From IMG/VR virus record IMGVR_UViG_3300020559_000006: a stretch of DNA of 50,037 nucleotides, one strand, 5' to 3'. Source of the DNA: a virus. How positions within the stretch are numbered: position 1 is the stretch's first letter; each line of letters begins with the position of its first letter. A program made the position numbers and the translations under genes. Under the pieces are notes generated by a model that ran no database searches, was not told the DNA's origin, and saw only the letters and a program-made list of their open reading frames with translations. This document shows positions 1 through 50,037 of the stretch, in pieces.

Positions 1-69
1 GTAAGCTGATCCGCAACATGGAGAATAGCATTTAAGCAAAACTAAAGCCGCAATTCAAATGTCGGATCA

Positions 70-98
70 TCTACAGATTTTCTGCTATAGTCTATAGT
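70..98 (+). promoter_or_regulatory. Candidate promoter of the TIR gene (TCTACA-17-TATAGT), contains tandem CTATAGT CTATAGT
   Basis: -35-like 70-75, 17-nt spacer, -10 TATAGT 93-98. GGAG SD at 110-113 and ATG at 124. Confidence 0.3.
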
Positions 99-123
99 TC
101 AGATATATTGGAGTTAATCCCAA

Positions 124-360
124 ATGTCCAGACCTAATGAAGACAAAGTTCGGATTCAATGCCGACTGCCAAAAGACAAAAAAGCAGCCTGGGATAAGGT
201 TTTGATAGAAGCCGGCTTTTTCTTCCGGCAAAAAGAAAATATTTATCCTATGTATGGGGAATTTCTAGAAGCACTGCTAGATCGTGATCCTAGAGCGTCC
301 TCAGTTATTTTGAAAATATCTTCTAAAATAATTGAAAAACCACTTGACAAACTAGAATAA
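124..360 (+). CDS. TIR-encoded small protein, possible ribbon-helix-helix (CopG/Arc-like) regulator
   Basis: 78-aa ORF with a GGAG SD. N-terminal VRIQCRLPKDKKAAWDKVL looks like an RHH beta-strand followed by a helix. Paralogue at 49686..49910. Confidence 0.4.
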   Translation: MSRPNEDKVRIQCRLPKDKKAAWDKVLIEAGFFFRQKENIYPMYGEFLEALLDRDPRASSVILKISSKIIEKPLDKLE

Positions 361-372
361 CTCTAGTAGACT
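344..372 (+). promoter_or_regulatory. Inward-facing left-arm promoter (TTGACA-17-TAGACT)
   Basis: TTGACA 344-349 overlaps the 3' end of the TIR ORF; -10 at 367-372 followed by ATAAATATAGGG. Same architecture as the early promoter family. The spacer holds the inverted repeat ACTAGA-N5-TCTAGT. Confidence 0.55.
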
Positions 373-405
373 ATAAATATAGGGTAAAGCAAAGGAAAGA
401 AACAA

Positions 406-558
406 GTGAAGCTAGTAAAAGTTGAGAACAACTGCCAAATGGAAGCAACTGCAGAATATATAACGCTTGAAGCGATCACTTCAGTTGAAGAAGCAGCCAA
501 AAATGGCTGCACTTGGGCTTTAGCCCAGCTAGAAGAGTGGGGCATAAAGTTTGAATAG
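406..558 (+). CDS. Small ORF (50 aa from GTG 406, or 39 aa from ATG 439)
   Basis: Not in the ORF track (<60 aa). AAGGAAAG lies upstream of the GTG. Its stop sits inside the 64-nt repeat. Confidence 0.3.
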   Translation: MKLVKVENNCQMEATAEYITLEAITSVEEAAKNGCTWALAQLEEWGIKFE

Positions 559-602
559 CCCGCCTGACGAGTCCGGCTGACTACCGGACGAAACTACCAC
601 CT
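539..602 (+). repeat. 64-nt direct repeat, copy 1
   Basis: GGGGCATAAAGTTTGAATAGCCCGCCTGACGAGTCCGGCTGACTACCGGACGAAACTACCACCT is identical to 1754-1817. Confidence 0.95.
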
Positions 603-620
603 CGTTGGGTAGACGAGGTG
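559..620 (+). ncRNA. Hammerhead-like motif, degenerate (predicted inactive)
   Basis: Same CUGACGA core, stem II and GAAA as the 1774 copy. Position 16.1 is A rather than U, and the 3' strand of stem I (GAGGUG) no longer pairs with CCCGC. An alternative 8-bp hairpin CACCUCGU/ACGAGGUG forms at 598-620. Confidence 0.5.
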
Positions 621-650
621 ATTCAAATTGATATAAATGAGGAAGAAAAA

Positions 651-1769
651 ATGTTTAAGATTAATGCTCAGGATTTACACTTTACTATTCAGAAGAAATT
701 AAATAAGATCCTTGGCGGATCTTTAGTTGATGGAATTATTGCAACAGGGATTAACCCTGATGAACTTGACTGGGAAGAAACAGAAATTGAAATTTACGGC
801 AGCATAGATTTTGATTGCGACAGACTATCCCAGTGTGTTTCCTGGGGTGAAGAAAAGCAAGAGCAATTAGAAGTAAAAGATGCTTTGTTGTCTGACATTA
901 AGAATGGGTTTAATAAGTTAGATGACTGGCACAAGTACCAAACAAGAGGTGCTTGGGGCTTCTTCGGTTCAGGTTTATCTTCCGGGATTAGCTACTATAT
1001 ACACGAATTAGACCGTAAATATTGCGGTCAAGTTTTTAAAGCTACCGGACGTGATAAAGAAGTAGCTACTTATGACCAAATGGACGGTTTTGGCTTTGCC
1101 GATTCTGTTGACAAACACGTATACACAAAATATGAATATAAACACTCAGATGGTACTATCATCTGGGTTACTGAAAATAAGAAAACATACACTATTCCTA
1201 CTGAACAGGAAGTAGTGGGGAGAATACAGGTTTTAATTTATGAACACTGCAAAAGAGAAAAAATGACATGGGAACTGTTTGTTAGTGACATTGAAAATCG
1301 AAAACAAAAGAACGCGGCTTTTGATGCTGCAGATTTAGCAGCAAGACAAGCAGCCATAAAAGCGGCTGAGTCCGCCATACCCATGCCTGAGTGGTTTCAG
1401 AAAGAGGTTTATTCCAAGGGCAGCGTCAATCGCTTTTGGATTGGTGATGATTACATTTATTCATTCTGGTGGGACACCCAAGATGGGACAGTGTGGCAAC
1501 AATGTGAAGACCGCACCCGTGGGTTGGCTGAACGCACCAGGAAATCTAAATCCTTGGGTTCAGATAGAGATGAGATTATGAACCATATAAACAGCCTATT
1601 GGCTGAACGCAGACGGGCAAGTGAGTTGCTCGCGCAACAAGAAGAAATTAAGCAGCAACAAGAAAAAAGGTACGACGAGTACAGGCACGATCAGAAGATA
1701 AAGAACGGTGTTGTTAAGCCCTTTGAGAAGTGGCTCAAACAAGAGTCAAGAGAGGGGCATAAAGTTTGA
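651..1769 (+). CDS. Hypothetical protein (372 aa)
   Basis: Long ORF with ATG 651 preceded by GAGGAAG (the track ORF starts at 618). No motif recognised. Flanked by the 64-nt direct repeats. Confidence 0.7.
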   Translation: MFKINAQDLHFTIQKKLNKILGGSLVDGIIATGINPDELDWEETEIEIYGSIDFDCDRLSQCVSWGEEKQEQLEVKDALLSDIKNGFNKLDDWHKYQTRGAWGFFGSGLSSGISYYIHELDRKYCGQVFKATGRDKEVATYDQMDGFGFADSVDKHVYTKYEYKHSDGTIIWVTENKKTYTIPTEQEVVGRIQVLIYEHCKREKMTWELFVSDIENRKQKNAAFDAADLAARQAAIKAAESAIPMPEWFQKEVYSKGSVNRFWIGDDYIYSFWWDTQDGTVWQQCEDRTRGLAERTRKSKSLGSDRDEIMNHINSLLAERRRASELLAQQEEIKQQQEKRYDEYRHDQKIKNGVVKPFEKWLKQESREGHKV

Positions 1770-1817
1770 ATAGCCCGCCTGACGAGTCCGGCTGACTACC
1801 GGACGAAACTACCACCT
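1754..1817 (+). repeat. 64-nt direct repeat, copy 2
   Basis: Identical to 539-602. Confidence 0.95.
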
Positions 1818-1829
1818 GGTAGTCGTGGG
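1774..1829 (+). ncRNA. Hammerhead self-cleaving ribozyme, stem I open (type I topology)
   Basis: CCCGC | CUGACGA | GUCCGG-CUGACUA-CCGGAC | GAA | ACUACC-ACCU-GGUAGU | C17 | GUGGG. All invariant core positions are present, with G10.1:C11.1 and A15.1:U16.1. Predicted cleavage falls between 1824 and 1825. Confidence 0.8.
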
Positions 1830-1863
1830 AAGTCACAATTTCACCCCACAAGAGGAAATAAAC

Positions 1864-2226
1864 ATGATCTACTCGTTTTTAAGTCAGGAATTTAACCAGA
1901 AGTTAGGGATTAATCCCGACTTTTCCTACGAGAGGGAAAGTCAAGGTAACACCTTTTATTTCTATATCAGGGAAGGTGTCCTCGTAGTTGAGGAATTTGA
2001 ACACTGCTACGACGATAAAGACCTCGTGAAAGAGGTTAAAATCATCCTAAATAAAGGCGACCACATAATCGCTGATTCGGTAGGTGGACTGACCTTGATC
2101 AAGTTGTTCAAAGTCGGTGTTAGGGTTAGTCTGCTTGATTCAGAGTTGGTAGGGTTGCCACTGGAGCAACAGACGGAGGACATAAAAACGGATATTATTT
2201 ATTCACTGGTTTCTTTAGGTGACTAA
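1864..2226 (+). CDS. Hypothetical protein (120 aa)
   Basis: ATG 1864 preceded by AGAGGAAA. The track start at 1825 coincides with the ribozyme cleavage site and is unlikely to be used. Confidence 0.6.
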   Translation: MIYSFLSQEFNQKLGINPDFSYERESQGNTFYFYIREGVLVVEEFEHCYDDKDLVKEVKIILNKGDHIIADSVGGLTLIKLFKVGVRVSLLDSELVGLPLEQQTEDIKTDIIYSLVSLGD

Positions 2227-21392: not shown

Positions 21393-21712
21393 GATAATTT
21401 CATGGATTGCGACGCTTTCAATGTTCCACTACTAACAGGAACTTCATCTAAAAACCGTTGATTCAAATAATGTGCGGTTTGGATAAATGCCATATCTAAA
21501 GTAGTTTGGTAGTTACTTTTAAAAACTGCGGGTAAATTACTACCAGCTAACGCCCGATCAGTCCATCGGTTTCCTTGTCTCTCATGCAAGTCATAGGCGT
21601 AGGGTGCTGACCATTGCCAATCGGCAATGGTTACGGTTAATCGTGGTGGTGTCCAGCTTCTCCAGATTGGCATTTTATTTTTATTTTTCCCATATCCCTC
21701 GACAATAAGCAT
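21389..21712 (-). CDS. Possible head-tail joining protein
   Basis: 107 aa. ATGA overlap with the next gene. Confidence 0.3.
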   Translation of the reverse strand: MLIVEGYGKNKNKMPIWRSWTPPRLTVTIADWQWSAPYAYDLHERQGNRWTDRALAGSNLPAVFKSNYQTTLDMAFIQTAHYLNQRFLDEVPVSSGTLKASQSMKLS

Positions 21713-21714
21713 AT

Positions 21715-21737
21715 AACCCTCTATTTTGAGGGTTTTT
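21715..21737 (+). terminator. Hairpin AACCCTC-TATTTT-GAGGGTT+TTT belonging to the repeated terminator-promoter unit
   Basis: Identical unit on the minus strand at 31331-31354. Here no plus-strand gene lies upstream. Confidence 0.5.
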
Positions 21738-21738
21738 A

Positions 21739-21819
21739 GTCATCAAAAAAATATTTTAAAAATTTTTCCAAAACCCCTTGACAAATATTTGTTATCCTGT
21801 TACTATATAAGAGTGAGAG
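21739..21819 (+). promoter_or_regulatory. Early promoter P1 (TTGACA-17-TACTAT) with palindrome ACAAATATTTGT
   Basis: -35 at 21778-21783, -10 at 21801-21806, palindrome at 21781-21792, A/T-rich upstream element. About 80 nt nearly identical to P2-P5. Confidence 0.8.
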
Positions 21820-21842
21820 AAAAAACAACAGGAGAAAGAACA

Positions 21843-22265
21843 ATGCTTGAATTAACAAATCAGAATCAGAGAATTATAGCTGGTTGCCTTGGAAATGGGG
21901 TCACTTTTGGGGATGTGCTTAATGATCAAACTGTGGCTCATGTTTCCTTTGAGGGGCAAATAACATGGCATTCTGATTACAAAAAAAAGATCGCAGAAGC
22001 TACTAAAAAACACATTCAAGAAACATCACTAGAATATCAAAAACAAGCCATGATCCCTCTTGATGCCATTATCAGCCCTAGAGATCACAAGTTTATGGCC
22101 ACTTACCTATATAAAAATTCTCAAGGTCAATACAAACATTTAGCAGATATCTACTACCCCAAAGGCAAGGACAAAGGGGGAGTTTATCTCAAAGTGTGGG
22201 AAGGCATTGTGCCACCTGAAATACTGGAAGAAATGAACCAGCTTTATAAATCCAATGGAGGATAA
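21843..22265 (+). CDS. Early protein, unknown function (140 aa)
   Basis: ATG 21843 after GGAGAAAG. The track start at 21726 lies upstream of the promoter. Confidence 0.7.
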   Translation: MLELTNQNQRIIAGCLGNGVTFGDVLNDQTVAHVSFEGQITWHSDYKKKIAEATKKHIQETSLEYQKQAMIPLDAIISPRDHKFMATYLYKNSQGQYKHLADIYYPKGKDKGGVYLKVWEGIVPPEILEEMNQLYKSNGG

Positions 22266-22385: not shown

Positions 22386-22463
22386 TCACTTTTTAACTTT
22401 AAAAAAACTTTCCAAAACCCCTTGACAAATATTTGTTATCCTGTTACTATATAAGAGTGAGAG
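22386..22463 (+). promoter_or_regulatory. Early promoter P2
   Basis: -35 at 22422-22427, -10 at 22445-22450; same palindrome. Confidence 0.8.
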
Positions 22464-22483
22464 TTCAATAAAAGGTAAAAACA

Positions 22484-22780
22484 ATGATTGATGTCTACTA
22501 CAGTTGTCTTCTGGATGAAGAAAACTGCCCAGAAATCACTACAGCATCAAGAAAAAGGGCTTTAGAATTAGCTCAACAAAAAACTAGTAACCCTGTATCA
22601 GTAGCAGAATTTGAAAAGGGGGAATATCTGTTATTTTATGAGAAAATTTCAGTTGATGAGACATTGCCTGAGAACAGGGGATATACTATAGAAGCCATTA
22701 TCAATGACTTAACTCCTCAATGTAGTGATGCAGAATATTCCTCTCATAGAAAAGTTAAAGTTACCTCCCAAGAGTGCTAA
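22484..22780 (+). CDS. Early acidic protein, unknown function (98 aa)
   Basis: ORF between P2 and a terminator; Glu/Asp-rich. Confidence 0.7.
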   Translation: MIDVYYSCLLDEENCPEITTASRKRALELAQQKTSNPVSVAEFEKGEYLLFYEKISVDETLPENRGYTIEAIINDLTPQCSDAEYSSHRKVKVTSQEC

Positions 22781-22847: not shown

Positions 22848-22928
22848 AGTCATCAAAAAATATTTTAAAAATTTTTCCAAAACCCCTTGACAAATATTTG
22901 TTATCCTGATACTATATAAGAGTGAGAG
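22848..22928 (+). promoter_or_regulatory. Early promoter P3
   Basis: -35 at 22887-22892, -10 at 22910-22915; same palindrome. Confidence 0.8.
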
Positions 22929-22952
22929 AAAAAAACAACAGGAGACAAAATA

Positions 22953-23216
22953 ATGTTTGTTACATTTGAAACCATAGAATCTAAACAAATCACAATTGAC
23001 ATCACTGGAGTAAGTGGCTGGGATAATGAGCAATTAACAAGATATGCCTGTGAACAATTGAATACAGACTACACAGATTATCAAGATAGAAGAAGTAGAA
23101 AACTGAAAAAAGGGGCAGTAGTAACTCCAATAAATTGGAGGCCTCTAAAAGTCTCTTGCAGACAAAAAATGCTTACCATAAAAAGACCACCTAGGAAATA
23201 TTCAGTAGTTTTCTAA
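22953..23216 (+). CDS. Early protein, unknown function (87 aa)
   Basis: ORF between P3 and a terminator. Confidence 0.7.
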   Translation: MFVTFETIESKQITIDITGVSGWDNEQLTRYACEQLNTDYTDYQDRRSRKLKKGAVVTPINWRPLKVSCRQKMLTIKRPPRKYSVVF

Positions 23217-23234: not shown

Positions 23235-23270
23235 ATACCCTGGATTAGTGATAGTCCAGGGTATTTTTTT
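23235..23270 (+). terminator. Rho-independent terminator
   Basis: ATACCCTGGA-10 nt-TCCAGGGTAT followed by TTTTTT. Confidence 0.8.
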
Positions 23271-23350
23271 AGTCAAAAAAATATTTTAAAAAAACTTTCC
23301 AAAACCCCTTGACAAATATTTGTTATCCTGATACTATATAAGAGTGAGAG
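23271..23350 (+). promoter_or_regulatory. Early promoter P4
   Basis: -35 at 23309-23314, -10 at 23332-23337; same palindrome. Confidence 0.8.
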
Positions 23351-23369
23351 AAAAAACAGGAAACAAAAA

Positions 23370-24344
23370 ATGAGAGTAGCAGAAATTAACACCACAGAAC
23401 TAAATTTAGACCCCAAAAGATTTCAATACAAACTAGTCCACAATTCAACAGGTGCTACTGGTTCATTATCAGGAATTGACTCCTGGAATATCTATTTGTC
23501 AGGAATTGTATTGGTGTGGGAAGATTTTGGAGACATTTATGTGGTCAATGGTCACAACAGAGTAACCCTGGCCAAAAAGCTGGGGGTTCAAAAAGTTCTC
23601 TGTAGGTTCATTGATGCCTCTACTCATGTAGAAGCTAGGCTAGTAGGTGCACTGGCCAACATTGCAGAGGGTATGGGAACTGCCATTGATGCAGCCAAGT
23701 TTTTTAGAGACTCATCATATACCGTAAAAGACGTAAAAAACTTTGGCATTAATCCCAGGTTAAAAATAGTGCAAGATGGGTTAAGCCTGTCCAATCTGGT
23801 TAGTTTCCTGTTTGATAAGGTTATTACTGGCACTATTCCCATTGATAAGGGTGTGATTTTGGGTAGTGTAGGGACCAGAGAACAGTTGGAAGTCTGGGAA
23901 TTGATTAAGGATAAGCAGGTTAGCACCCCTGCATTGGATGAAATTATCGCAAATATCCTTAACCCTGCAACTGGGCAAATGTCCCTGCTTAACCTCTACA
24001 TAGACAGTGATGATGAGCTAATAAGACTAGAGTTAATTGCCCTGGTAAGGGTCAAGCTACAAAGATCCAAAAAACTATTACACTTAGTCTCAGATAACTC
24101 TCAATTCCTAGAGTCAATAGGAAACAACTTAAATCACACTGGCAACACATCAACTGGTGAGTTAACTCACTATGTGCTACAAATTTTTGACCAGTTAAAA
24201 AATCAGAGTGGACCAGTAAGTGACATTCTCAGTAAAGGTGTCAATGCTATAAAATCAGGTCAATCAATGCCTGATGTGATAACTGTTTGTGTTAATGAAC
24301 TAATCACAGTTATTCCTAGAATGATCAACCAAAAAGTTGCTTAA
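23370..24344 (+). CDS. ParB/Srx-like N-terminal domain protein
   Basis: IYVVNGHNRVTLAKKLGVQKV resembles the ParB box (DGHHR...A..LG). Confidence 0.55.
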   Translation: MRVAEINTTELNLDPKRFQYKLVHNSTGATGSLSGIDSWNIYLSGIVLVWEDFGDIYVVNGHNRVTLAKKLGVQKVLCRFIDASTHVEARLVGALANIAEGMGTAIDAAKFFRDSSYTVKDVKNFGINPRLKIVQDGLSLSNLVSFLFDKVITGTIPIDKGVILGSVGTREQLEVWELIKDKQVSTPALDEIIANILNPATGQMSLLNLYIDSDDELIRLELIALVRVKLQRSKKLLHLVSDNSQFLESIGNNLNHTGNTSTGELTHYVLQIFDQLKNQSGPVSDILSKGVNAIKSGQSMPDVITVCVNELITVIPRMINQKVA

Positions 24345-30968: not shown

Positions 30969-31226
30969 TTAGTAAGGGGCGTTTTGAATCAACCATTGAA
31001 TGTCCCCCTCATAGAGTTCCTGGTCTTCAGAGAACTCATTAACAAGATGACAAGCTTTGACAGCTTCACCTAGCAATTGTTTTGTTTGGCTCTGATCAGA
31101 CATCCAAAATGTCCAGTTTTTTTGATTACCTAATTCAACCATTTTTGCAAAAATTTCTTTTGCATATTCACACACTTTAGACCCCCATATCCAAGCACAT
31201 ATTAAATCAATTTCTACATTTTTCAT
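30969..31226 (-). CDS. Early protein, unknown function (85 aa)
   Basis: ATG 31226 after AAAGG, downstream of P5. Confidence 0.65.
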   Translation of the reverse strand: MKNVEIDLICAWIWGSKVCEYAKEIFAKMVELGNQKNWTFWMSDQSQTKQLLGEAVKACHLVNEFSEDQELYEGDIQWLIQNAPY

Positions 31227-31247
31227 GGTTTTACCTTTATTTCTCAA

Positions 31248-31330
31248 CTCTCACTCTTATATAGTAACAGGATAACAAATATTTGTCAAGGGGTTTTGGA
31301 AAGTTTTTTTAAAATATTTTTTTGATGACT
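31248..31330 (-). promoter_or_regulatory. Early promoter P5 (minus strand)
   Basis: -35 at 31289..31284, -10 at 31266..31261. Nearly identical to P1-P4, including the upstream element. Confidence 0.8.
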
Positions 31331-31354
31331 AAAAAACCCTCAAAATAGAGGGTT
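31331..31354 (-). terminator. Terminator of the repeated terminator-promoter unit
   Basis: The minus strand reads AACCCTC-TATTTT-GAGGGTT-TTTTT, 8 nt after the stop of 31362..31568. Confidence 0.7.
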
Positions 31355-31361
31355 ATATGCG

Positions 31362-31568
31362 TTATTCACCTTGTTTTTCTTTCTTCAATTTTGCCCGCTT
31401 TAGTCGCATATACTCTCTCATGTACTCTCGTTTGGCATCCTTGCGTTCGCGGTCTAATTCGCGTTCACGTTCCCTGACTTCAGGCTTCTGGCGATATTTC
31501 TTCCTCCGTGCCTTACCTTTTTCAGATCTTTCGTAATTCCATTGAGCTTTTCTTAAATTCTCGTCCAT
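31362..31568 (-). CDS. Highly basic coiled-coil-like small protein (68 aa)
   Basis: KARRKKYRQKPEVRERERELDRERKDAKREYMREYMRLKRAKLKKEK. Driven by P6. Confidence 0.6.
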   Translation of the reverse strand: MDENLRKAQWNYERSEKGKARRKKYRQKPEVRERERELDRERKDAKREYMREYMRLKRAKLKKEKQGE

Positions 31569-31648: not shown

Positions 31649-31675
31649 TGGTTTAGGGTTTCACTGTTTTTGACC

Positions 31676-31740
31676 TCTCTACATTTATATAGTAACAGCC
31701 TAACAAATATTCGTCAAGGGGGTTTTGGAAAGTTTTTCAA
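31676..31740 (-). promoter_or_regulatory. Early promoter P6 (diverged family member, TTGACG-17-TACTAT)
   Basis: -35 at 31717..31712, -10 at 31694..31689. The palindrome is degenerate (ACGAATATTTGT). Confidence 0.65.
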
Positions 31741-31778
31741 ATCAGGGGAAAGCTTGCTAAAACAGGATAAATATCAGT

Positions 31779-49626: not shown

Positions 49627-49660
49627 CTCTGTCCTGTAATTTGTTTCACTCTATATTTAT

Positions 49661-49699
49661 ACTCTACTAGACTTATTCCAATTTGTCAAGGGGTGTCAA
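49661..49699 (-). promoter_or_regulatory. Inward-facing right-arm promoter (TTGACA-17-TAGAGT) with duplicated -35
   Basis: -35 at 49689..49684, with a second CCCCTTGACA copy at 49699..49694; -10 at 49666..49661. Drives the FGE-like gene. Confidence 0.55.
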
Positions 49700-49910
49700 G
49701 GGGTTTTTTAGAAAATATTTTCAGGATAACCGATAATGCTCTAGGATCACCATCTAGCAGTGCTTCTAGAAATTCCCCATACATAGGATAAATGTTTTCT
49801 TTTTGCCGAAAGAAAAAGCCGCCATCTATCAGCAGCTTGTCCCAGAGTGCTTTCTTGTCTTTTGGCAGTCGGCATTGAATCCGAACTTTGTCTTCATTAG
49901 GTCTGGACAT
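49686..49910 (-). CDS. TIR-encoded small protein, second copy (possible RHH regulator)
   Basis: 74 aa, about 88% identical to 124..360, with a different C-terminus. Confidence 0.4.
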   Translation of the reverse strand: MSRPNEDKVRIQCRLPKDKKALWDKLLIDGGFFFRQKENIYPMYGEFLEALLDGDPRALSVILKIFSKKPLDTP

Positions 49911-49939
49911 TTGGGATTAACTCCACTAGATATATCTAA

Positions 49940-49968
49940 ACTATAGACTATAGCAGAAAATCTGTAGA
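49940..49968 (-). promoter_or_regulatory. Mirror copy of the candidate TIR-gene promoter
   Basis: Lies inside the perfectly identical 99-nt terminal segment. Confidence 0.3.
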
Positions 49969-50037
49969 TGATCCGACATTTGAATTGCGGCTTTAGTTTT
50001 GCTTAAATGCTATTCTCCATGTTGCGGATCAGCTTAC

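Follow-up and report, generated by a model that had tools for sequence, protein, structure and literature searches.

Probable DNA-level splicing of a truncated gene into a hammerhead ribozyme in a cyanophage genome

Introduction

In the viral DNA stretch IMGVR_UViG_3300020559_000006 (IMG/VR; 50,037 nucleotides (nt), termed the window here), a gene encoding a protein of 372 amino acids (aa) lies between two direct repeats, each of which carries the core of a hammerhead ribozyme. How did a single gene come to stand between a complete ribozyme and an incomplete one? A first-pass annotation of the window had offered two answers, a gene cassette inserted by recombination through the ribozyme sequence or a second ribozyme that has decayed, and had added that two active copies would have excised a ~1.26-kb RNA with ligatable ends, a circular RNA precursor. 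It had also proposed that relatives be compared for the presence of 603–1753 and for the state of the upstream copy. Such a comparison, made here with related contigs (labeled L; their proteins, P), points to a modified form of the first answer: a truncated gene was probably spliced at the DNA level into a hammerhead, leaving one working ribozyme and one dead front fragment (probability about 0.78).

The source of the window appears to be a siphovirus-like cyanophage of filamentous cyanobacteria. Phages of this group carry type I hammerheads in intergenic gaps, where they directly follow a stop codon and precede the next ribosome-binding site by ~30 nt; there, the ribozymes presumably cut a polycistronic transcript into gene-length mRNAs.

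Two copies of one repeat

The two repeats are identical over 64 nt (539–602 and 1754–1817), as the earlier annotation had stated. The match reaches 70 nt with one mismatch (533–602 and 1748–1817) and 73 nt with two, at positions 538 and 603 (533–605 and 1748–1820), at a spacing of 1215 nt. The same repeat closes two reading frames, also as described before: it supplies the TAG (556–558) of a small open reading frame (ORF) in copy 1 and, in a different frame, the TGA (1767–1769) of the 372-aa ORF in copy 2. Both copies contain the stem I 5' strand CCCGC, the core CUGACGA, stem II (GUCCGG-N7-CCGGAC), GAAA and the 5' strand of stem III. The two-copy arrangement is found in at least 10 independent assemblies, including IMG/VR, ENA and NCBI metagenome-assembled genome (MAG) contigs from different samples (L002/L066, L073–L075 and L077–L080), and is therefore not an assembly artefact. 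A third copy indicated by a repeat finder at 2856–2883 (71% identity) was ruled out as a hammerhead, a covariance-model search having seen no hammerhead there.

The downstream copy is an intact hammerhead

Copy 2 continues beyond the repeat as GGUAGUC/GUGGG (predicted cleavage at the slash), a continuation that had been called functional-looking and that does fold into a canonical three-way junction, its minimum-free-energy structure (-23.6 kcal/mol). All 17 pairs of the model are present; loops close stems II and III, and stem I is open. The catalytic core (CUGACGA at 1779–1785 and GAA at 1805–1807) is invariant in family alignments, A1808 pairs with U1823 to give the A15.1-U16.1 pair, and the N-U-H triplet is G1822-U1823-C1824, with cleavage predicted after C1824 (GUC/G).

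At Rfam gathering thresholds, nothing is reported in the window, and hammerheads are likewise unlisted at an E-value threshold over the whole window. In a local search of 1.6 kb, RF00163 (Hammerhead_1) matches 1773–1830 with 23.1 bits (E = 0.011), below the gathering score of 34 because of the long loops. The core pattern CTGAYGAGTCCGG-N7-CCGGACGAAAC matched 14 viral and 51 metagenomic stretches, and a covariance model, R1, was built from 19 complete relatives that exclude the window's own sequence type. Copy 2 reaches 66.2 bits with R1 (E about 1e-20), every pair being formed; run with filters off, the model finds no hammerheads in the 50 kb besides copies 1 and 2. Covariation is evident in an alignment of 83 distinct family members, itself fitted to the model, in which 95.8% of pair cells hold standard pairs and 15 of the 17 pairs show changes on both sides; none of 500 shuffles matches the family pairing, and shifted-partner controls reach 30–43%. 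Furthermore, copy 2 is intact in every contig examined.

In this hammerhead family, stem I lies right next to the stop codon of the preceding gene, and the cleavage product starts with GUGGG. CCCAC follows GTGGG by 8–40 nt in 30 of 34 distinct family contexts (background, 2.7%), giving a GUGGG-N(10-17)-CCCAC hairpin that is followed by a Shine-Dalgarno motif and an ATG and that competes with stem I for GUGGG. In the window, this hairpin directly precedes a Shine-Dalgarno motif at 1852–1856 and the ATG at 1864. Alone it folds weakly (-7 kcal/mol, z = 0.1), and any role for it is therefore proposed tentatively. Copy 2 itself likely cuts the transcript from the promoter at 344–372 into separate mRNAs whose new 5' ends would be hydroxylated and capped by the hairpin.

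A separate observation concerns contig L081 (4216–4267), in which copy 2 has, in place of loop II, the reverse complement of that loop (CTGACTA to TAGTCAG) between palindromic CCGG arms, through either hairpin-mediated inversion or an assembly quirk.

The upstream copy is a ribozyme fragment fused to coding sequence

Copy 1 (558–620) has the same conserved catalytic core as copy 2 and then continues as CGUUGGGUAGACGAGGUG. The earlier annotation had read into this continuation an A:A clash between positions 15.1 and 16.1 and the loss of the stem I partner. The clash is present (A593 opposite A613, with GAC as the triplet), but three of the five stem I pairs remain. Likewise, the alternative hairpin that it had noted exists, although it is computed at 9 base pairs (bp) rather than 8, 598–606 pairing with 612–620 through one G-U pair. 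The predicted fold of 556–625 (minimum free energy -24.8 kcal/mol, z = -2.1) consists of stem II and this junction hairpin, which takes the place of stems I and III. Model R1 gives copy 1 44.2 bits with a 5-nt insertion and three non-standard pairs (A15.1/A16.1 and two in stem I), and RF00163 gives 14.2 bits at 559–609 in the local search.

The copies had been said to diverge downstream of the repeat, and they do, yet beyond 602 copy 1 still aligns to copy 2 with a 5-nt insert and three substitutions. The resemblance exists because this flank is coding sequence of the downstream gene, not the product of ribozyme decay. Homologues of the 372-aa protein (64–81% identity; 396–413 aa) begin M..L..R..L.NLI.RVG.G.QNI.RWVDELI.ID...KMF when full length, and this N-terminal stretch hardly varies among 30 sequences. 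Read in the frame that leads into the ATG at 651, the window gives K L P P R W V D E V I Q I D I N E E E K M F, so that RWVDEVIQID stands where P0012–P0016 have RWVDELIQID. At the DNA level, the full-gene contigs L085/L087 have AAC ATC TAC / CGT TGG GTA GAT GAG TTA ATT CAA ATT GAT, and the window has GAAACTACCACCT/CGT TGG GTA GAC GAG GTG ATT CAA ATT GAT, with GAA ACT ACC ACC T before the slash; codon-level identity begins exactly at CGT TGG GTA GA. Because the 3' flank of copy 1 matches homologue codons in frame, copy 1 never had a 3' half of its own at this site. What had looked like a degenerate 3' half (603–620) is ancestral coding sequence for R-W-V-D-E-V, and the gene lacks its first ~26 codons. 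A match of 606–653 to the Rfam family DUF2815-RNA (18 bits vs 41) was rejected as chance; it rests on GGGUAGACGA, the codons W-V-D-E.

The other end of the gene is altered as well. Homologues end FEKWLQTVA-stop, and their genes pass from the stop codon directly into a hammerhead or other intergenic sequence; the window protein ends FEKWLKQ followed by ESREGHKV-stop, and tblastn alignments of it to relatives stop at residue 363 of 372. Natively, the first 26 nt of the repeat are read in the frame of the small ORF, whose last codons read EEWGIKFE-stop. In L071, the former stop codon of the gene is still visible, with TAG mutated to AAG right before the small-ORF tail. The segment between the repeats, 603–1747, is thus a gene fragment that has neither the conserved N-terminal ~26 residues nor a stop codon of its own.

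Activity of a hammerhead is abolished by A/A at 15.1/16.1 together with a missing stem I. Copy 1 is predicted, on good grounds, to be inactive; by contrast, copy 2 alone kept the stem III 3' strand, the GUC site and the stem I 3' strand and therefore alone can cleave. A mispair at A15.1-U16.1 also served as grounds for rejecting hammerhead candidates in an earlier survey (Perreault et al. 2011, PMC3088659). With one cleavage site only, the suggested ~1.26-kb circular RNA precursor falls away.

Natural variants bear on copy 1 as well. In L081–L084, a deletion of 13 nt (CCCGCCTGACGAG) takes out its stem I 5' strand and the CUGACGAG core, and apart from it there are zero substitutions in 124–1769, including the adjacent 1.1-kb gene. 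Another deletion, of 21 nt, has removed stem II in L071/L072, and in the 99%-identical contig L021, copy 1 is gone with the whole 1215 bp. Being lost in different ways in different strains, copy 1 appears to be dispensable.

The scar also distorts annotation: in L081–L084 (3001–4206), a 401-aa ORF (P0007) is called after the 13-nt deletion, starting inside the small ORF and reading through the ribozyme remnant as MNSPADYRTKLPPRWVDEV.

Three states of the locus

Related contigs show the locus in full, empty and composite form, with copy 1 variably deleted. In type A (L008/L067, L014/L033/L036 and L011), the order is promoter, full gene, hammerhead and 120-aa gene. In type B (L021, L069 and L070), a small ORF takes the place of the full gene. 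The flanks of L021 are 99.2% and 99.7% identical to window positions 1–605 and 1748–2323, respectively; L069 and L070 are more diverged, and the UGA within their CUGA core serves as the stop codon of the small ORF. Type C, the composite, comprises the window, L002/L066, L073–L075, L077–L080, L081–L084 and the ~80%-identical L071/L072, and the junction is the same in all of them.

These states suggest the following history. The ancestral locus would have been of type B, with promoter, small ORF, hammerhead and 120-aa gene, and a type A fragment of a ~400-aa gene, native at this position in related phages, would have been joined into it by illegitimate DNA recombination. The left junction lies in hammerhead loop III, between ACCU and the codon CGT. 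There, stem III reads CTACC-ACCT-GGTAG, and codons 25–29 of the gene read CTACC-GTTG-GGTAG, with identical arms. By chance, about one in a thousand such genes would contain a specified 5+5-nt motif at a fixed spacing; the presence of this shared CTACC-N4-GGTAG motif at the junction therefore suggests microhomology-mediated joining. At the right junction, the last sense codon of the gene would have been joined to the small-ORF tail, and a shared sequence of only ~3–5 nt (CTAG/AAGAG) can be proposed at a position that is placed only approximately. Two such junctions would therefore leave ~70 nt of target on both sides of the insert. Consistent with insertion, the site is empty in L021, L069 and L070, and 70 nt of target flank an insert of 1145 nt. 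The route may have been two microhomology crossovers between collinear co-infecting phages or one template-switching event.

Recombination between the two copies would subsequently keep them identical, or would have made them so. Within a genome, the repeat tails differ at 1 of 35 positions (window) or by four substitutions and one indel (L071), whereas orthologous tails differ between genomes at 6–7 of 35 positions; the greater similarity within genomes therefore indicates recombination or conversion between the copies. The same repeats would also allow precise loss of the gene, and L021 may represent such a deletion through the 64-nt repeats, a direction favored by the abundance of type C among near-identical contigs.

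The cassette proposal of the first-pass annotation thus largely stands. Recombination at the ribozyme agrees with the empty loci of L021, L069 and L070 and with a left junction inside loop III. The reconstruction departs from that proposal in that the insert is a 5'-truncated, stop-less fragment of a gene that other relatives natively carry at this locus and in that the joining would have been mediated by microhomology, with the cleavage site uninvolved.

Alternative explanations

Three further histories were considered and rejected. RNA-level joining by ribozyme cleavage and ligation does not fit a junction in loop III, 7–8 nt 5' of the would-be cleavage site. Tandem duplication of gene and hammerhead in a full-gene ancestor alone, with a later internal deletion, is incompatible with copy 2, where the gene tail EKWLKQ and the small-ORF tail stand in tandem, and is also ruled out by the unrelatedness of the small ORF to the 372-aa gene family (no homology; hhalign probability 0.3%). 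An integron- or transposon-type cassette is contradicted by the absence of inverted terminal repeats around the insert, by a duplication of 70 nt and by a gene without start region or stop.

The second of the original answers, that copy 1 was once a whole hammerhead and decayed where it stands and that the gene formerly lay between two active ribozymes, is very improbable. Genes between two complete hammerheads are indeed the norm in relatives (L008, L051 and L004), and copy 1 still gives a full-length alignment to the hammerhead model (44 bits), GGUAGACGAGGUG resembling GGUAGUCGUGGGA. However, the resembling bases are the in-frame codons W-V-D-E-V, and the same DNA occurs in full-length homologues with coding sequence, not a ribozyme, upstream. 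Moreover, the gene is without ~26 nearly invariant N-terminal residues, and decay would leave unexplained both a gene start in mid-domain and the duplication of the small-ORF tail at the 3' end of the gene. Hardly more probable is retention of copy 1 for a function, either as a decoy or competitor for the 3' strand 1818–1829 or, through the junction hairpin, as a stability or translation element of the 372-aa gene. Such a function would agree with the 100% identity of 64 nt between the copies in the window strain, with the persistence of the arrangement in lineages about 80% identical and with the substitutions in D-E-V (GAT GAG TTA to GAC GAG GTG), which extend the junction hairpin to 9 bp. 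Yet copy 1 is without its stem I strand and catalytic core in strains whose neighboring gene has zero substitutions, and without stem II in another lineage; recombination between the repeats is a simpler cause of the identity, and the data show no long-range pairing.

Several points weigh against the splicing of a type A gene fragment into a type B hammerhead as reconstructed above, or against its details. The right junction is located approximately, not to the base. The inactivity of copy 1 is predicted from established hammerhead biochemistry and natural deletions, and the 64-nt identity could in principle reflect selection on copy 1. In addition, 603–839 is 95–100% identical between the window and L071, and the flanks are 77–82% identical; the composite has therefore passed between lineages by homologous recombination, which blurs arguments from parsimony. 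Finally, the window type could descend from L021 rather than L021 from it by deletion. The single-hammerhead form would then be the recent ancestor, and the window would have gained the cassette very recently from a composite-type phage by homologous recombination, with the single repeat serving as homology on both sides. This order of events is possible, though not the expected one. The near-identity of the L021 flanks to the window speaks for it, as do the high identity of 603–839 to L071 and the way in which identity between the copies stops exactly at their inner edges (538/1753 and 603), as if they were mostly recipient sequence. Against it, near-identical contigs are far more often of the composite than of the single-hammerhead type, and deletion between 64-nt direct repeats is the simpler event. 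The choice would alter the order of events only, not what the structure is.

Neighboring genes and signals

The features of the locus are collected in Table 1.

Table 1. Features of the ribozyme locus and of the dispersed repeats in the window
Feature	Position	Strand	Remarks
Sigma-70-like promoter, TTGACA-17-TAGACT	344..372	+	10/12 positions in promoter scan; inside 3' end of 78-aa gene 124-360
Small ORF, 50 aa	406..558	+	Conserved small protein; homologues P0002-P0004 71-80% identical
Repeat copy 1	533..602	+	70 nt; small-ORF tail 533-558 and orphan 5' two-thirds of hammerhead
Copy 1, stem I 5' strand	559-563	+
Copy 1, core CUGACGA	564-570	+
Copy 1, stem II	571-589	+
Copy 1, GAA	590-592	+
Copy 1, A15.1	593	+
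Copy 1, stem III 5' strand	594-598	+
Copy 1, loop ACCU	599-602	+
Junction hairpin, 9 bp	598..620	+	Left arm, hammerhead stem III and loop III; right arm, codons D-E-V
Putative inserted fragment of ancestral ~400-aa gene	603..1747	+	Codon ~27 (R-W-V-D-E...) to last sense codon; 1145 nt
372-aa ORF	651..1769	+	Alternative GTG start 618; repeat, read out of frame, gives final 9 residues (ESREGHKV plus stop)
Repeat copy 2	1748..1817	+	70 nt; small-ORF tail and hammerhead 5' part, running on into genuine 3' half
Complete type I hammerhead ribozyme	1773..1830	+	Stem I 1774-1778/1825-1829; stem II 1786-1804; stem III 1808-1813/1818-1823
Conserved hairpin GUGGG-N15-CCCAC	1825..1849	+	5' end of 3' cleavage product; shares stem I 3' strand
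120-aa gene 3' of hammerhead	1864..2226	+	Member of paralogous family
2H phosphoesterase, 120 aa	2219-2581	+	Pfam tRNA_lig_CPD 31.4 bits (cut-off 23); HITL and HISV motifs
Dispersed repeats	21704-21849, 22398-22487, 22848-22959, 23265-23373	+
Dispersed repeats	31226-31366, 31664-31742	inverted

An element equivalent to the promoter's TTGACA occurs at the same place in L008, L014, L011 and L085, and no convincing + strand terminator lies between the promoter and 2600; the promoter likely starts a transcript that contains the small ORF, both repeat copies and the downstream genes. The homologues of the small ORF share an invariant C-terminal LAQLEEWGIK, and no function is assigned to it. The 372-aa ORF has a Shine-Dalgarno motif, GAGGA, 7 nt 5' of its ATG, and the KMF motif near its start is present in all homologues. 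Its AlphaFold2 model has a pLDDT of 85.8 and finds no fold match in the PDB (best E = 0.0099, TM 0.11), and the protein has no Pfam, PHROG-function or PADLOC assignment. In L076 (3246–3720), this gene leaves the window sequence at ~895 and runs into a relative of the window's 21–23 kb repeat family, a break that reflects either further rearrangement or a chimeric assembly.

Paralogues of the 120-aa gene 3' of the hammerhead were found by tblastn in L004, L008 and L051, and in relatives, the family forms arrays in which hammerhead and gene alternate. Four hammerheads are present in L008, four in L051 and three in L004, separating small paralogous genes. The 2H phosphoesterase gene, ~400 nt 3' of the hammerhead, is kept at the end of these arrays, and phage CL131 has a polynucleotide kinase/phosphatase in the vicinity. 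The 2H phosphoesterase might process the 2',3'-cyclic phosphate ends that ribozymes generate.

The only cultured relative found is this Aphanizomenon phage, vB_AphaS-CL131. Its hammerhead scores 47 bits (L088 4671–4728; MG209611.1, about 98385–98442) and lies right after the stop codon of gp131; gp130, a 24-aa, 75-nt annotated coding sequence that overlaps the hammerhead, is probably not a gene. A scan of genome contigs returned two unrelated MAG matches only and thus gave no clue to a host or prophage.

Elsewhere in the window, the first ~400 nt and the reverse complement of the last ~400 nt share 90% identity (1–393 and 49640–50037), so that its ends form an inverted repeat, which includes the 78-aa gene and its promoter. 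A family of dispersed repeats of 66–119 nt, 80–96% identical, has at least six copies. In longer contigs of the same phage (L073 172–1245), genes for an XisA/XisC-type recombinase and an NlpC/P60 protein lie ~1.3–2.8 kb upstream of the window start, a find that hints at a temperate or excision-element lifestyle.

Relation to known systems

In prophages, multiple hammerheads flank single genes, and three of these arrangements have been shown to cleave (Perreault et al. 2011, PMC3088659). Copy 2 resembles the type I hammerheads of prophages and phages (PMC3088659; RF00163, clan CL00010) in its consensus core CUGANGA...GAAA, open stem I, GUC triplet and intergenic position, and as in prophages, several hammerheads bracket single genes in its relatives. 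This subfamily differs in that it falls below the gathering score (23 vs 34 bits) and has a conserved GUGGG...CCCAC hairpin 3' of the cleavage site. Copy 1 differs from the prophage hammerheads in being a 5' fragment only, failing both the A15.1-U16.1 pair and stem I. It is more like the cryptic or mutant hammerheads in repeats that were rejected as candidates (PMC3088659), mispaired beside the core and within a repeat; in contrast to those, its origin is traceable, to a probable truncation at loop III by fusion to coding sequence.

The proposed joining resembles microhomology-mediated illegitimate recombination and mosaicism in phages, the subject of work on lambda Red and Rad52-like recombinases, among others (PMC2327257; PMC3945230), with short shared CTACC/GGTAG motifs, exchange between collinear relatives and patchy identity. 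It differs in that a ribozyme stem would supply the shared motif and in that the 70-nt target duplication would now mediate further gain and loss. A parallel to copy 2 is found in RiboJ, a synthetic insulator composed of the sTRSV hammerhead followed by a 23-nt hairpin (PMC8794103). Both have a hammerhead and a hairpin at the new 5' end, and in copy 2 a ribosome-binding site follows; copy 2, however, is natural and of another ribozyme lineage, and its hairpin, for which a comparable function is only suggested, uses the stem I 3' strand. No paper was found in the literature on hammerheads in cyanophages or on hammerheads as recombination boundaries.

Implications for phages of the Nostocales

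The copy 2 ribozyme adds a member to an established class, in a setting of a familiar kind, and the main value of the locus is a clean evolutionary reconstruction, together with the lead that gene exchange in these phages may be organized by ribozyme DNA. What appeared to be a pseudo-ribozyme becomes a traceable recombination event whose donor, empty site and product are all extant. For annotation, it is a warning that half a ribozyme beside a gene may have arisen by fusion of coding sequence at a stem and not by decay. In addition, a previously unannotated hammerhead subfamily is recorded in phages that infect bloom-forming cyanobacteria, the cultured Aphanizomenon phage CL131 among them; its members form units of ribozyme, hairpin and ribosome-binding site, as in the synthetic RiboJ insulator.

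A wider and more speculative idea, of rather low probability, is that in phages of Nostocales, the hammerhead serves both as an RNA-processing site and as ~60 nt of portable DNA homology for gain, loss, duplication and swap of single genes, in effect a recombinase-free cassette system. L083/L084 match the window exactly as far as loop III of copy 2, beyond which they have a different allele; this switch, the tandem arrays of paralogues and the loss in L021 motivate, without proving, the view of ribozyme DNA as a preferred crossover site. If it is true, the window locus would be one captured example, with insertion at the ribozyme seen beside the L021 loss, the L083/L084 switch and the paralogue arrays. 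The locus thereby raises the questions of whether conserved ribozyme DNA may be a hotspot of phage mosaicism and whether the 2H phosphoesterase acts on ribozyme-made RNA ends.

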